In this document: positions 17,159-38,883 of the stretch, piece by piece
Layout: each line of letters opens with the position of its first letter
Numbering within the stretch: position 1 is the stretch's first letter
NCBI GenBank assembly: GCA_902775895.1
Contig: CACYNO010000008.1
Span: forward strand, 17,557 to 81,556
From: an uncultured Lachnospiraceae bacterium
GTDB lineage: Bacteria > Bacillota > Clostridia > Lachnospirales > Lachnospiraceae
Direction of reading: 5' to 3'
Length of the DNA stretch: 64,000 bases
Program-made: the position numbers and the translations under genes
The notes under the pieces: generated by a model
Database searches by the model: none
What the model was told of the DNA's origin: nothing
Seen by the model: only the letters and a program-made list of their open reading frames with translations

Positions 17159-18100
17159 TCAGTTTACCTTCTTTTCAAAAACCCTGAGCTTTGCGCTTTT
17201 TGATCTGGGATTGATCTCCATCTCTTCTTCGCCCGGCAAAATGGGTTTTTTTGTAATAACCTTTCCTTTTGATATCTTCCCACATACGCACACCGGAAAA
17301 TCCGGCGGACATGTACACGGGCTTTCCGCTTTTTTAAATGCGTTCTTTACTATCCTGTCTTCCAGAGAATGAAATGTGATGATACACAGCCTGCCACCGT
17401 CTTTTAGCAGATCTATCATCTCGGGTATCACTTTTTCTACACTCTCTAACTCTCCATTTATAGCAATCCTTATCGCCTGAAAGGTTCTTTTTGAGGGATG
17501 TCCTCCTTTTATGCGAAACCTTTCGGGAATTGCGGATCTGATAATATCGTTCAACTCAAAAGTTGTCTTAATGTGTGCTTTCTCTCTCTTACTGACTATG
17601 CAAGAGGCAATGGATGAAGCAAATTTTTCTTCTCCGTATTCCTTAAGGATACGTGTCAGTTCATCTTTCGAGGATCCGTTTACGATATCGGCTGCCGTCT
17701 TTGTCTGCCTCATGTCCATCCTCATATCAAGAGGTGCATCATTTTTATAAGAAAAACCCCTCTCCGGCGTATCGAGCTGGTGGGAAGATACCCCCAGATC
17801 CAGTACAATGCCGTCTGCTCCTTCAATACCCAGTTGCTCCAGCACCTCAGGCATACGGTCAAAATTACTCCTGACCGGAGTAAAGATGTCCGTATACTCT
17901 TTTAGTACATCCGATGCGGCTTCAATAGCCTCACCGTCTCTGTCTATTCCTATCAGCCGTCCTCTTTTCGAAAGCCTGCGGGCTATCATAAGGCTGTGAC
18001 CTCCGCCACCGAGAGTCCCGTCAACATAAATACCGTCTTCCTTTATATTCAGACTCTCGATCGTTTCCTCTAAAAGAACCGATACATGGCCAAAATCCAT
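17159..18100 (-). CDS. rsmH: 16S rRNA (cytosine1402-N4)-methyltransferase
   Basis: 313 aa, [13 protein letters not shown] motif, follows mraZ. Confidence 0.95.
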
Positions 18101-34877: not shown

Positions 34878-35130
34878 TCATTTAAGCTTTATATTCTTAA
34901 CCTGAACAAATCCGCCAATAAGCCCTAATACAGGATCTGCTGCAGAGCAAATGTTGCTGACAGTAGATGTGGGGTCCATTGCTCCCGGGTTGGTCTCCCA
35001 GAAGATCAGATCGTAGCTTCCGGTCACTCCGGCCATATACCTTCTGCTCCACATTGCAGTAAGGTTTAGTCTTTTCAAAAAGTGTCTCCGCGGGAGTATC
35101 AATGCCGTTAAATACCTTTTCCGCCAGCAT
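34878..35130 (-). pseudogene. small gene split over two overlapping frames (frameshift or sequencing error); function unknown
   Basis: ORFs 34897..35130 and 34878..35102 overlap in different frames behind a consensus promoter. Neither alone looks complete. Confidence 0.35.
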
Positions 35131-35164
35131 GTTTGTCTTAACTAACCCAAGATCGTCAAAAAAA

Positions 35165-35219
35165 GTTAGCCTACGCTAACAATGCAACTGATTATACACA
35201 GCTAACTTTTATTTGTCAA
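35165..35219 (-). promoter_or_regulatory. consensus promoter plus GTTAGC-N4-GCTAAC operator
   Basis: Minus strand TTGACA (35214-35219) - 17 - TATAAT (35191-35196). Palindrome GTTAGCCTACGCTAAC at 35165-35180. Confidence 0.6.
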
Positions 35220-35260
35220 CTCTCTGTTCAACTGTTTCAGACTTGGGGAGAATAATTTTT

Positions 35261-35745
35261 TTAAAGGGATTGTATAGTAAAACTTCTTTGCTCAATTATC
35301 TTCTCACAAATATCTGCCGAATTTACAAAGCCGACTTTTTCTAATTCCTGTCTGGCTTTTTTAAGAGACTTGATAAATCTGTCAGCCATATCAAAGAAAT
35401 GTGCCATCGCAATCTTAGATCCGATGCCGGCTTTTTTTGCTTCTTTTTCAAATGAAGCTGCATTTATTTTATCGCACCTATACACTCACTGCCTAAGCCG
35501 GAAAGTATGGATAAATAATCATTTTCATCTGTTCTGAGCCATCCGGCGACTGTTTTTCTTGTAAAACCCTCAGGCAGCATCCCCTCAAAAAAGTTTTTCG
35601 TAGCTTTCGGAGAAAACGCTTCTTTTTGCAACGGGAGACTTATAGATACCGGGCGGCTTCCCGGTGCTTCGAGGTATTCATCATAATATGTAAAACAGGC
35701 ACTCTCTGTCGTTTCACCTGAAATACATCCAACATCCTTTTGTCA
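35261..35745 (-). pseudogene. hipA-like kinase toxin remnant: N-terminal domain fused to the C-terminal about 70 aa, kinase core deleted
   Basis: My minus-strand translation of 35464-35730 gives ...ACFTYYDEYLEAPGSRPVSISLPLQKEAFSPKATKNFFEGMLPEGFTRK...GSECIGAIK*. This matches the HipA N-domain pattern. ORF 35261..35485 resembles a HipA C-terminus and lies in another frame. Confidence 0.55.
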
Positions 35746-35775
35746 ACATTATAGGCGCTTGACATATTTTAGCAA

Positions 35776-36327
35776 TTATCCCGCCACCGTAAGTTCTCGA
35801 ATGGACACCCCGTTTCTATGTCTGTTTTCAAAATTGCCGGTGCATTTTTTAAATGTCGCAAATGTTTCTTTCGCTTTTGAAATATTGCCGTACACCTTCC
35901 ACATCCCGCAATATTTGTAATTCTTTGCATCATTTTCAATAAATCCTATTACATCCTCCGGCGGATATCCCAAAAACAGTCCCACTTCATGAGGAAAATG
36001 TTCCTTAGCATTTATATGTTCTTTCAGACAAGATATGCATTCAGAATGGCGCTCACATGGGTAGCCTCTCTCATTCAAGACTTTAAACGCCCTTTTGTCC
36101 TCCAGGTCAGCCTTAAGACTCGACATGCGATAGACATAAATAAGAGCCTTACCATTTTGTATTCGCATAGGTATAAGCCTGACTCCTTTGGGGAGCAATA
36201 CACTGTTAAACTCTCTTATCTCATCCAAAAGATCATATTTATCTTTATAATCACATACGAACAAGCTGCCCGTCTTTAAACCCGCCAGTGTTGGGGCACA
36301 ATGTTTTATCAGGGTCTCTTCTGACAT
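35776..36327 (-). CDS. DUF3793-like protein
   Basis: 183 aa, N-terminal ...LIKHCAPTLAGLKTGSLF...; downstream of a flavodoxin gene. Confidence 0.6.
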   Translation of the reverse strand: MSEETLIKHCAPTLAGLKTGSLFVCDYKDKYDLLDEIREFNSVLLPKGVRLIPMRIQNGKALIYVYRMSSLKADLEDKRAFKVLNERGYPCERHSECISCLKEHINAKEHFPHEVGLFLGYPPEDVIGFIENDAKNYKYCGMWKVYGNISKAKETFATFKKCTGNFENRHRNGVSIRELTVAG

Positions 36328-36377
36328 AGCGGCCTCCTTTGAGGATCATGAAAAAATCTATAACACTCCATTAATAT

Positions 36378-36800
36378 TTAAGAAAGCGCTTTTCCCAGAG
36401 CTCTGCATTTCTCAAGATCTTCATCCCCCGGTGCTTCATTTGCAGTAACACTTTCGCAAACGAGATCTATACCTTCCGATCTGCACTCCTCTTCCCATTC
36501 TCTCATCCATGTTCCGTCGCCCCATCCGTATGATCCGAAAAGGGCTATTTTCTTTCCTTGCAAGCCTGATTTAACCGAGTCCCACATGGGCTGAAAAACT
36601 GTTTCTTCCAAGACCTCAACTCCCATTGAAGGACACCCGAAGGCTATGGAATCATATTCTGATATGGCATCCGCATTAAACATTTCGGCGCTGATGATGT
36701 CTGCCTGCATTCCCGCCGCCTGTGCACCTTCCGCAACCGCCTTTGCCATATTCTCAGTATTACCTGTTCCGCTCCAATACACTACTGCTGCCTTACTCAT
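36378..36800 (-). CDS. short-chain flavodoxin
   Basis: 140 aa, VVYWSGTGNTE FMN-phosphate loop, GSYGWGDG. Confidence 0.9.
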   Translation of the reverse strand: MSKAAVVYWSGTGNTENMAKAVAEGAQAAGMQADIISAEMFNADAISEYDSIAFGCPSMGVEVLEETVFQPMWDSVKSGLQGKKIALFGSYGWGDGTWMREWEEECRSEGIDLVCESVTANEAPGDEDLEKCRALGKALS

Positions 36801-36833
36801 AATAAATACCTCCGTTATAAATCTTTAATTTGT

Positions 36834-37121
36834 TTAGTTTTTTGTATATTTTTCTAATATCTTCTGAAGCGAGGATGCTGAAGCACTTTTTACTCTTTCC
36901 ACCGTTGTGGAGCCTCCCTTCACCTCAGCCATGGCACAATGTGCCATTTTATGGGACATATATCCCGTAAAAAAGATCATAAGGTCGGGGTTTCCGATCT
37001 TATTTTTAAGTCCGCCGTTTACCGGCTTGATAAATGTCTTTACATCACATTTATATCTTTTGCATATTTCTTTGTACTTACTTTCCATACACTCATTTCC
37101 GCCTACTATAACAACGCTCAT
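36834..37121 (-). CDS. DUF2325-like protein
   Basis: MSVVIVGGNECMESKYKEICKRY... Start set at the ATG after an AAAGGAG RBS (ORF track GTG at 37151). Confidence 0.6.
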   Translation of the reverse strand: MSVVIVGGNECMESKYKEICKRYKCDVKTFIKPVNGGLKNKIGNPDLMIFFTGYMSHKMAHCAMAEVKGGSTTVERVKSASASSLQKILEKYTKN

Positions 37122-37174
37122 ATATTCTCCTTTCGTAATATGTATCAGCACGGTTTTTTATATCTTACCGTTTC

Positions 37175-37261
37175 GTTAGCTTAGGCTAACTCATGGTTGT
37201 TAAAAAAGTTAGCCCTCGCTAACACTGTGTTGATTATATACATCCGGCATTTATTTGTCAA
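37175..37261 (-). promoter_or_regulatory. consensus promoter plus two GTTAGC-N4-GCTAAC operators in front of DUF2325-flavodoxin-DUF3793
   Basis: TTGACA (37256-37261) - 17 - TATAAT (37233-37238). Palindromes at 37208-37223 and 37175-37190. Confidence 0.6.
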
Positions 37262-37278
37262 CTGTATTGAACGGTTAT

Positions 37279-37773
37279 TTATATCTTCATCCCCATTACG
37301 TAATCTCTGCTCACAAAACCGTCTCCCATATCCGTATCTATTTCCTCTTCCACATAAAACCCCAAATGCTTGTATGCTTCTATAGACCCGGTGTTATCAC
37401 GATTCACATGCAGGAAAATCTCATGAAGATCTTCTTTTCTTGCTTCAGTCTTTATAAAATCCAGAACATCGGATGAAATACCTTTGCCTCTGAATTCTTT
37501 CTCTAAATAAATCTTACTCAAGAACATCCTGCCGTCTTTGGGATAAAAACTGAAATAGCCGGCCCTCTCATCAGACTCATCCGTATAAACATAATAATAG
37601 TTGCTGCCCTCATCCAGCTGCTGTTTTATGGCAGCTTCGGAAAGAAACAACTCAAAAACATAATCTGTAAGCCCCTTATCAACGCATGTATAATAGTGCT
37701 CTTTCCATATTTTTTCCGCAAAAGGAACGAGTTCCTTTATATCTTTTTCAGTTATTTTTTTAAAATGTGTCAT
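37279..37773 (-). CDS. GNAT family N-acetyltransferase
   Basis: FRGKGIS acetyl-CoA loop. Start set at MTHFKK after a GGAGG RBS (ORF track 37830). Confidence 0.85.
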   Translation of the reverse strand: MTHFKKITEKDIKELVPFAEKIWKEHYYTCVDKGLTDYVFELFLSEAAIKQQLDEGSNYYYVYTDESDERAGYFSFYPKDGRMFLSKIYLEKEFRGKGISSDVLDFIKTEARKEDLHEIFLHVNRDNTGSIEAYKHLGFYVEEEIDTDMGDGFVSRDYVMGMKI

Positions 37774-37923
37774 GCTGCCTCCATCCATCTCGTTATACGC
37801 GCGTCCGCTTGAGTATATGTGTCTCCTCACTATTGCTTTTGGCTTTGTCAGGCGTTACAAGTATTATATCATCTCCTCAACTGCCTGAGAATCACACTTT
37901 GAAAGCCGAACTTGAGTTAAATC

Positions 37924-37976
37924 TTCCAAATCAGTGTGAACTGTGGTATTATAAAATCAAGTTAGTCAAGGCTAAC
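37924..37976 (+). promoter_or_regulatory. extended -10 promoter plus GTTAGT-N4-GCTAAC operator in front of the methyltransferase gene
   Basis: TTCCAA - 17 - (TGg)TATTAT (37947-37952). Palindrome 37961-37976 starts 8 nt after the -10. Confidence 0.5.
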
Positions 37977-38034
37977 TGTGCGCCGCATTATTTATTTTAC
38001 CGAAATATAATCCGACACCTATCATAAGGAGGAA

Positions 38035-38883
38035 ATGATGATCGCTACAGAAAAATATCATATAGAAAAAAATACTGTTCAGGAGACTCTGATGATACCT
38101 CTGTTTGGCAGGAAGCTATGCACAGAGGTATTTCCTGATCTGTACAAGGATGATACGGCCGTGATGCTGTGCGAAAAAGTTGACTACGATTTCAGTGAAA
38201 TGGAAAAAAAGAGCAAAAGCAGTTTTTATCGTTTCGGCGCATTGGAGGCGGCCATGAGACAGCTGGATATCAAATGGGAGATCGAAGATTATCTCAAGGA
38301 AAACCCGAACGCGGCAGTGATCAACATGGGCTGCGGCTTAGACAATACAGGGCGTGCAGTGGATAACGGAAAGATAAAAATATATAACATCGACTTTGCA
38401 GACATCATAAAAGCAAGAGAGACTCTGCTGCCCAACGGGGACAGAGAGGAAAGCATAGCAACGGAATTAAGTGAGCTGTCATGGCTGGACAGAATAGACG
38501 CAAGCCACGGCGCAGTATTTTTCGCTGCCGGAGTTTTCCATTACCTGACTACAGAGCAGGTAAAACGCCTTGTTCTTGAGATCGGCAAACGATTTCCCGG
38601 AGCACGTCTCGTATTCGATACTGTGGGAAGGCTCGGACATAAGCTTATGATGAAAAAAGTGCTGAAGAATTTCGGGATCACCGATGTGAGCGGATACTTC
38701 CACGTAAATAATGTGGAAAAGGAACTGGGAGACTGGTCTGAAAATATCGCTTTGAGCCACAGAGGATACATGCTCGGTTACTACGACCTCCATACCACCG
38801 GCGTCACAGGATTCCACAGATTCCTGTCAAGGGTTGGAGACGGCACTATGAAAATGCGTATCGTGAGGATGGATTTTTTATAA
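38035..38883 (+). CDS. class I SAM-dependent (TcmP/LCM-like) O-methyltransferase
   Basis: 282 aa, VINMGCGLD motif I, downstream acidic motif II. Confidence 0.7.
   Translation: MMIATEKYHIEKNTVQETLMIPLFGRKLCTEVFPDLYKDDTAVMLCEKVDYDFSEMEKKSKSSFYRFGALEAAMRQLDIKWEIEDYLKENPNAAVINMGCGLDNTGRAVDNGKIKIYNIDFADIIKARETLLPNGDREESIATELSELSWLDRIDASHGAVFFAAGVFHYLTTEQVKRLVLEIGKRFPGARLVFDTVGRLGHKLMMKKVLKNFGITDVSGYFHVNNVEKELGDWSENIALSHRGYMLGYYDLHTTGVTGFHRFLSRVGDGTMKMRIVRMDFL

Follow-up and report, generated by a model that had tools for sequence, protein, structure and literature searches.

Which factor reads a palindrome that recurs at three neighbouring promoters, none of which lies near a gene for a DNA-binding protein? 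The question is raised by a stretch of 64,000 nucleotides, called the window in the following (positions 17,557 to 81,556 of contig CACYNO010000008.1, GenBank assembly GCA_902775895.1; G000:C8:17557-81556), from an uncultured Lachnospiraceae bacterium with a genome (G000) of 1.65 Mb. Its promoters (i), (ii) and (iii), in the 35-39 kb region, each carry a GTTAGY-N4-GCTAAC palindrome just past the -10 box. They precede a small split open reading frame (ORF), a DUF2325-flavodoxin-DUF3793 operon and a gene for an S-adenosylmethionine (SAM) methyltransferase, respectively. An earlier note on this DNA had taken the palindrome for the target of a repressor encoded elsewhere and could assign it to no known operator consensus. 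We consider that the palindromes are very probably operators (iron boxes) of the single DtxR/IdeR-family metalloregulator of this genome. The observations that lead to this view are the motif itself, its enrichment and promoter bias, its conservation, its linkage to the regulator gene, a covariation between protein and site, and the metal ligand set of the protein. From these we infer that the regulator binds the sites, that iron is the effector and that the control is negative.

Distribution of the palindrome in the genome

The window contains four GTTAGY-N4-GCTAAC palindromes, exactly where the earlier note had placed them, while 100 dinucleotide-preserving shuffles give an expectation of 0.00. 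Each of the four begins 8-10 nt 3′ of a -10 box. The repressor-type placement at three promoters, at about +1 to +20 and with the regulator encoded elsewhere, thus stands as proposed; in many promoters of related genomes the palindrome likewise lies 0-11 nt past a recognisable -10 box.

Over the whole genome the pattern yields 10 strand-matches and the reversed control pattern none. Occurrence at random frequency and away from promoters, which would have spoken against a regulatory role, is not what we observed. A motif model built solely from the sites of other species and then scanned on this genome (threshold at least 10 bits) gave 12 hits, all 12 of them outside ORFs of at least 120 aa. 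The sequence outside such ORFs makes up 11.6% of the genome (P ~6e-12, or ~3e-7 with the hits grouped into 7 loci), which amounts to a strong bias for promoter regions. The model extends the motif by one base on each side, to the 18-bp RGTTAGY-N4-RCTAACY; within the 4-bp spacer hardly any base is preferred, and TTAGG repeats are absent from the flanks.

Beyond the window, sites are found at a Sir2 gene, a feoA-feoA-feoB operon, a gene for a feoA/B fusion and a ferredoxin gene; a hydG-like radical-SAM gene and a gltD-like Fe-S flavoprotein gene have weaker sites nearby. The feoA-feoA-feoB leader, which follows directly after the Sir2 gene, has three sites, including one at the ribosome-binding site of feoA. 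The Sir2 promoter and both feo promoters share the layout of promoters (i) and (ii), namely TTGACA, a 17-nt spacer, a -10 box, 3-10 nt and the palindrome. In addition, both feo promoters have a half-site GTTAGC within the spacer, of which the Sir2 promoter has the variant GTTAAA. This set of genes points to iron. A response to redox or iron stress had been guessed earlier from the flavodoxin; that guess can now be narrowed to iron.

Conservation in related genomes

We found the exact 16-mer in 20 of 60 related genomes (21 of 61 with the present one) and the reversed control in a single one. Where its neighbours in these relatives can be identified, they are feoAB, DUF2325, DUF3793/flavodoxin and methyltransferase homologues, as well as a FecCD-type permease, a substrate-binding lipoprotein and the gltD-like orthologue; a few sites fall inside coding regions in a chance-like manner. 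Footprinting of this kind had been suggested at the outset, and indeed other genera have kept the operator upstream of these genes. DUF2325, DUF3793 and flavodoxin genes carry sites in many of these genera, and promoter (ii), which has kept both of its operators in the closest relative (G006), is the conserved core among the regulon promoters of the window. Methyltransferase homologues have an operator upstream in G002 and G012 and none in G020. As a member of the regulon, promoter (iii) is specific to this lineage.

A single DtxR-family protein and its linkage to the sites

The earlier statement that no regulator gene lies nearby is correct, no gene for a DNA-binding protein being present between 34.7 and 40.3 kb; a candidate can nevertheless be named. 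The only DtxR-family gene of the genome lies outside the window on another contig (G000:C3:68448-68819, minus strand) and encodes a protein of 124 aa. It has the N-terminal winged helix-turn-helix domain PF01325 (38.7-39.6 bits, cut-off 26) and the dimerisation and metal-binding domain PF02742 (64-65 bits, cut-off 27), and ends after these two N-terminal domains at residue 124, with no SH3-like domain. Profile matches to structures in the PDB are to MntR, DtxR and IdeR (E = 1e-21 to 1e-17), the closest being MntR 2h09 and 1on1 (E ~1e-21). The protein reaches 59.6 bits with the NCBIfam equivalog model of DtxR (cut-off 290) and 85.9 bits (NF008273) and 64.2 bits with those of MntR (cut-offs 153 and 138, respectively). 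Since these scores are far under both the MntR and the DtxR cut-offs, we assign the regulator by sequence to an unnamed DtxR subfamily. A second weak DtxR-like match in the genome turned out to be a GntR/FadR-type protein.

Since 59 of the 61 genomes carry a homologue of the regulator, presence as such does not discriminate. In relatives in which the regulator gene is divergent from feoA-feoA-feoB, all nine regulator-feoA intergenic regions examined hold one to three sites. We extended this to a sample of 80 homologue loci from other species (569 kb, allowing at most one mismatch per site), labelled Oscillospiraceae, Acutalibacteraceae, Ruminococcus, Lachnospiraceae, Tissierella and Erysipelotrichaceae and comprising both metagenome-assembled genomes (MAGs) and isolates. 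Here we found 97 sites, against one match of the control pattern. They are distributed over 36 loci, in most of which a feoA(A)B operon is divergent from the regulator gene and the sites stand between the two, often with an extra site just upstream of feoB. In one locus (L118) they lie between the regulator gene and a DUF2325-DUF3793-flavodoxin operon. Loci with a lone regulator gene, as in the present genome, mostly have no site.

Fit between protein and operator

In structures with DNA, IdeR reads one CCTAA repeat per subunit, a dimer contacting two repeats 4 bp apart, and a single IdeR dimer also binds a half site of this kind, the KD being ~78 nM (PMC8464063, PMC10317159). The geometry of TTAGC-N4-GCTAA equals that of the IdeR single-dimer half site. 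The palindrome is therefore not foreign to the known operators, as the earlier note had it; DtxR and IdeR were simply missing from the list of regulators with which it was compared. A 19-bp box for two overlapping dimers was not found at these promoters, and where there are multiple sites they stand separately.

In IdeR, Gln43 is hydrogen-bonded to base 1 of the CCTAA repeat (PMC8464063). The clostridial regulator has kept the S37-x-P39 motif and has Arg at residue 43. Among loci with adjacent sites, the contacted base is G in 143 of 196 half-sites where the protein has Arg43; where it has Ile, Val or Thr, a group of six related loci, G is found in only 3 of 24 half-sites, which otherwise have T or A. 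This covariation, at the very contact where it would be expected, is suggestive rather than rigorous, and it is the most specific evidence that the regulator reads the site. It would make residue 43 and base 1 of the pentamer a simple specificity determinant.

The metal ligands of the regulator

In a profile alignment with Bacillus subtilis MntR, residues M10, E13, H79, C101, E104 and H105 of the regulator align with the six metal-ligand positions of MntR, which we take to be D8, E11, H77, E99, E102 and H103. Asp8 of MntR is replaced by Met and Glu99 by Cys. The coordinates of the DtxR match put M10 and C101 at Met10 and Cys102 of DtxR, and counterparts of all four primary ligands of IdeR/DtxR (Met10, Cys102, Glu105 and His106) are present as M10, C101, E104 and H105. 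The ligand set is retained as [M/N/D]10-E13-H79-C101-E104-H105 in 109 of 109 homologues, with Met (88), Asn (14) or Asp (7) at position 10. Met and Cys in place of Asp8 and Glu99 favour Fe2+ selectivity (PMC10317159). In Faecalibacterium duncaniae, ferrous sulfate strongly represses feoAABC and a flavodoxin gene is co-induced with it; the regulator was not named (PMC10781979).

A model for the regulation

We propose the following model. When iron is sufficient, Fe2+ would fill the site formed by Met10, Cys101, Glu104 and His105, and one dimer would then bind per 18-bp RGTTAGY-N4-RCTAACY, each recognition helix reading one TTAGC pentamer. The sites span about +1 to +20; a weaker site overlaps the spacer and the -10 box, and 17 bp further downstream there is often a second one. 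Because they cover these positions, the bound repressor would be expected to block RNA polymerase. When iron becomes scarce, the repressor would leave the DNA. In the window this would derepress the DUF2325-flavodoxin-DUF3793 operon, the LCM-type methyltransferase gene and the duplicated promoter of the decayed ORF, and elsewhere sir2-feoA-feoA-feoB and the feoA/B fusion gene. Most likely, then, the uptake of ferrous iron, a methyltransferase and a flavodoxin operon that includes two uncharacterised genes are joined under one low-iron switch. The palindrome, an orphan as long as only the window was considered, would in this way become the ordinary site of a trans-acting metalloregulator.

Several points weigh against this model. 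The arms of the motif model were chosen via the search pattern, a bias from which only the flanks, the spacer and positions 6 and 11 escape. The relatives are non-independent samples, and the methyltransferase operator is not kept in every orthologue. In homologues where residue 10 is Asn or Asp, the ligand set is a hybrid of the Mn and Fe types, and the comparison at residue 43 depends on the small group of six loci mentioned above. A check for autoregulation, which had been suggested earlier, was negative, no site being found upstream of the regulator gene in this genome. Finally, the second of the two Fur-family paralogues described below matches best to Fur models, though far under their cut-offs, which leaves a slight chance that it is a true Fur.

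Alternative explanations

The same protein could act on the same operators with Mn2+ as the effector, in the manner of MntR. Feo-type transporters would in that case import manganese, and some FeoB paralogues do transport this metal. The closest structures and NCBIfam models are those of MntR (2h09, 1on1; NF008273 at 86 bits), the two-domain architecture is MntR-like, and position 10 is Asn or Asp in some homologues. We nevertheless regard manganese as an unlikely effector: the protein of this genome has the Fe-selective pair Met10 and Cys101 and scores far less than the 153 and 138 bits required by the MntR equivalog models; flavodoxin is a typical mark of iron sparing; neither an NRAMP nor an MntABC gene was found beside a site; and in a related species feoAABC answers ferrous iron (PMC10781979). 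A still less probable explanation is that another factor, a Fur paralogue or an unrecognised protein, binds the palindrome and that the linkage to the DtxR-family gene reflects no more than a shared feo neighbourhood. It would be in line with the lack of an operator at the regulator gene here, and also with the finding that co-localisation of sites and regulator always involves feo or flavodoxin operons. However, the sequence and spacing of the half-sites are those of IdeR/DtxR, and residue 43 covaries with the contacted base. As to the Fur family itself, the genome has two paralogues, one by a rubrerythrin gene and matching best to PerR models, the other directly upstream of a gene for a ZnuA-like lipoprotein; because of these neighbours they look like PerR and Zur, respectively. 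The best matches of the promoters to a Fur box (GATAATGATAATCATTATC) have 6-9 mismatches out of 19, which corresponds to background (mean 8, 5th percentile 6).

The sites are transcribed, and it might be asked whether the element acts in the RNA, either as a 6-bp 5′ hairpin stabilising the mRNA or as an attenuator or terminator at promoters (i) and (ii). The hairpins fold at -3.6 to -6.7 kcal/mol, those of 37223-37208 and 35180-35165 at about -6.7 kcal/mol; a terminator scan lists these two as terminator-like, each with 6-7 T in a row behind it, and there is a weak association between positions 6 and 11 (Fisher P = 0.011). On the other hand, a T-run is present at none of 22 sites checked in relatives, the arms are conserved in sequence with no covariation and 25 of 109 sites are non-pairing at positions 6/11, sites also occur in untranscribed -35/-10 spacers, and the sites track the gene of a DNA-binding protein and its residue 43. 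We thus give an RNA mechanism very little weight; owing to the missing T-runs, the conserved arms and the untranscribed sites, a role of the RNA would be at most a local side effect. The combination typical of an intrinsic terminator, a GC-rich hairpin with a conserved U-run, was not found, the T-run being restricted to the paralogous promoters (i) and (ii). That the blocks around these two promoters are a dispersed repeat or the remnant of a mobile element with no role in transcription, a possibility which the earlier note had itself raised against its proposal, is so improbable that it can practically be set aside. It is true that they share ~95 bp and that promoter (i) drives only a decayed ORF, but blastn finds the block only twice in the genome, and the 16-mer alone recurs at non-homologous promoters of linked genes across genera. 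An operator of the DtxR-family protein remains our preferred reading of the palindrome.

Promoters and genes of the window

Promoter (ii), that of the flavodoxin operon, lies on the minus strand (37233..37261) and matches the consensus TTGACA-17-TATAAT at 12 of 12 positions. Operator 1 (37208..37223; 21.6 bits) is followed 17 bp downstream by operator 2 (37175..37190; 20.4 bits). The gene assignments made earlier in this region are borne out by Pfam. On the minus strand the operon begins with the DUF2325 gene (36834..37122; PF10087, E = 1e-26), continues with the gene of a short-chain flavodoxin (36378..36800; PF00258, and TIGR01753 above its cut-off) and ends with the DUF3793 gene (35776..36327; PF12672, E = 3e-55).

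Promoter (i) is an equally perfect TTGACA-17-TATAAT on the minus strand (35191..35219; 12 of 12 positions). Its operator (35165..35180) is the exact palindrome GTTAGC-CTAC-GCTAAC, begins 10 nt past the -10 box and scores 22.7 bits in the scan with the motif model. The extra half-site GCTAAC reported within the -35/-10 spacer is indeed present (35201..35206); on the minus strand it combines with the -10 hexamer into the weak full site GTTAGC-TGTG-TATAAT. A spacer half-site of this kind is also found in both feo promoters of the genome and in one locus of the relatives (L007). The homology between promoters (i) and (ii) spans ~95 bp, from the -35 box up to and including the second operator, compared with the ~80 bp originally estimated. 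In the whole genome, blastn detects just two copies of this 95-96-bp block, both of them in the window, which makes it a local duplication rather than a dispersed repeat. The counterpart of operator 2 in promoter (i) is a decayed operator, GTTTGTCTTAACTAAC (35131..35146), which aligns with 37175-37190, has one mismatch to GTTAGY-N4-RCTAAC and abuts the ATG of the small ORF. Promoter (i) is probably a remnant, namely a duplicated copy of promoter (ii) whose second operator has decayed. The small ORF 3′ of it is split over two frames (34878..35130, minus strand) and belongs to no Pfam family; in a search of 5.8 billion sequences just two tiny unnamed protein clusters match it. It is probably itself a remnant behind the duplicated promoter. 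The interval between promoter (i) and the DUF3793 gene contains fragments of a hipA-like gene (35261-35765, minus strand), with a Pfam Couple_hipA match at 35464-35631. On the minus strand, T-runs follow the palindromes 37208-37223 and 35165-35180 at ~10-30 nt past the predicted start; they are probably incidental but could cause local termination or pausing.

Promoter (iii), on the plus strand (37924..37952), is visible in the sequence as described, TTCCAA-17-TGgTATTAT. Because its -35 is under the threshold of the promoter scan, it is best read as a promoter of the extended -10 type. Its operator (37961..37976), GTTAGT-CAAG-GCTAAC, has with 23.1 bits the highest score of the genome-wide scan and precedes the gene of an LCM/TIGR00027-type SAM methyltransferase (38035..38883, plus strand). 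The divergent gene of a GNAT acetyltransferase (37279..37775, minus strand) had been counted among the controlled genes. This is probably not the case, as it has its own predicted promoter (37891-37863), 70 bp from operator (iii).

The corresponding region of G006 has undergone a deletion of ~190 bp between the short direct repeats tatatcat / aatatcat (L022, G006:C45, 2160-2230, compared with 37850-38075 of the window), which took promoter (iii) with its operator and, from the methyltransferase gene, the ribosome-binding site and first codons. The same genome has a second, paralogous operon (L162, G006:C167, 841-2124), with two operators and the order DUF3793-flavodoxin-methyltransferase fragment, at the end of a contig. 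Since this operon joins the two, the methyltransferase may well be functionally linked to the flavodoxin module.

Further sites outside the window

The site at the Sir2-family deacetylase promoter (G000:C1:288539-288554) scores 20.1 bits, and the gene lies directly upstream of the feo operon. If this site works, an NAD-dependent deacylase would be iron-regulated. Operators within feo operons are found at the feoA1 ribosome-binding site in this genome (G000:C1:289759-289774) and just upstream of feoB in ten loci of other species (L067, L073, L083, L094, L095, L101, L112, L122, L129 and L134); they could serve as roadblocks or control internal promoters.

A site of 15 bits, GTTAGCCAAAACTAAC (G000:C6:41930-41945), lies ~118 bp upstream of a gene for a 56-aa 2x[4Fe-4S] ferredoxin. 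It precedes the likely -35 box and is divergent from a gene for a permease of the phosphotransferase system (PTS) EIIC family. Such a position would suit iron-dependent activation, the opposite of the repression proposed for flavodoxin. The gltD-like Fe-S flavoprotein gene (G000:C2:226720), which lies divergent from a GltB-like gene with a rubredoxin fusion, has a weak site of 14.3 bits; in a congener (L158, G008:C3), an orthologue 77% identical to it has an exact palindrome.

Significance and comparison with known systems

Reviews of 2023 and 2024 assign iron-sensing DtxR proteins to high-GC Gram-positive bacteria and archaea (PMC10317159, PMC11672702). We found no paper on a clostridial DtxR/feo/flavodoxin regulon or on this motif in a search that left RegPrecise and subscription journals aside. 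A broader reading of our data has three parts: that an SH3-less Met/Cys DtxR protein, and not Fur, is the main iron sensor in a large part of the Clostridia (Oscillospiraceae, Acutalibacteraceae, Ruminococcus and Lachnospiraceae MAGs, and some Tissierellales and Erysipelotrichales); that DUF2325, DUF3793 and the LCM-type methyltransferase are tied to a flavodoxin iron-sparing module; and that the ferredoxin site could add a reciprocal ferredoxin/flavodoxin switch. Taken jointly, we see the case for and against these three propositions as evenly balanced. If such a protein is the main sensor, this would contradict the view in the reviews that DtxR proteins of low-GC Gram-positive bacteria sense manganese only. 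Our analysis names a candidate regulator and its operator for the iron-responsive expression of Feo and flavodoxin in abundant gut Clostridia, for which the 2024 study in F. duncaniae named none (PMC10781979). It also offers the low-iron response as a testable functional context for the widespread DUF2325 and DUF3793 proteins.

The closest known parallel is IdeR/DtxR of Corynebacterium, Mycobacterium and Saccharopolyspora. Shared features are the domains PF01325 and PF02742, the Met10/Cys/Glu/His ligands, S37-x-P39, a TTAGS pentamer, the 4-bp spacer per dimer, an operator over the -10/+1 region and the logic of a holo-repressor of iron uptake. The clostridial protein differs in lacking the SH3-like domain and the ancillary ligands; its predicted operator is a single-dimer site instead of a 19-bp box for two overlapping dimers, with base 1 a G presumably read by Arg43 where IdeR has a C read by Gln43. 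Furthermore, its host is a low-GC Clostridium, and the regulon includes flavodoxin, DUF2325 and DUF3793. With MntR of B. subtilis and Escherichia coli it shares the SH3-less two-domain build, the best PDB and NCBIfam matches and one dimer per palindromic operator; MntR has Asp8 and Glu99 where the present protein has Met and Cys, and its targets are mntH and mntABC in place of feo and flavodoxin. For archaeal DtxR proteins of the FetR/IdeR type, which belong to a different domain of life and are likened here by description, Leyn and Rodionov (J Bacteriol 2015) reportedly predicted from comparative genomics that they repress feoAB via palindromes. The Fur regulons of Clostridia, such as that of Clostridioides difficile, have the same output, with feo and flavodoxin up at low iron; Fur belongs to an unrelated protein family, however, and its AT-rich box is absent from the promoters studied here. 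The mechanism that we propose is therefore the known one of DtxR/IdeR. The differences lie in the host among the low-GC Clostridia, the combination of an MntR-like architecture with IdeR-like ligands and an IdeR-like half-site, the single-dimer operator, the pairing of Arg43 with guanine, and the regulon members of unknown function.

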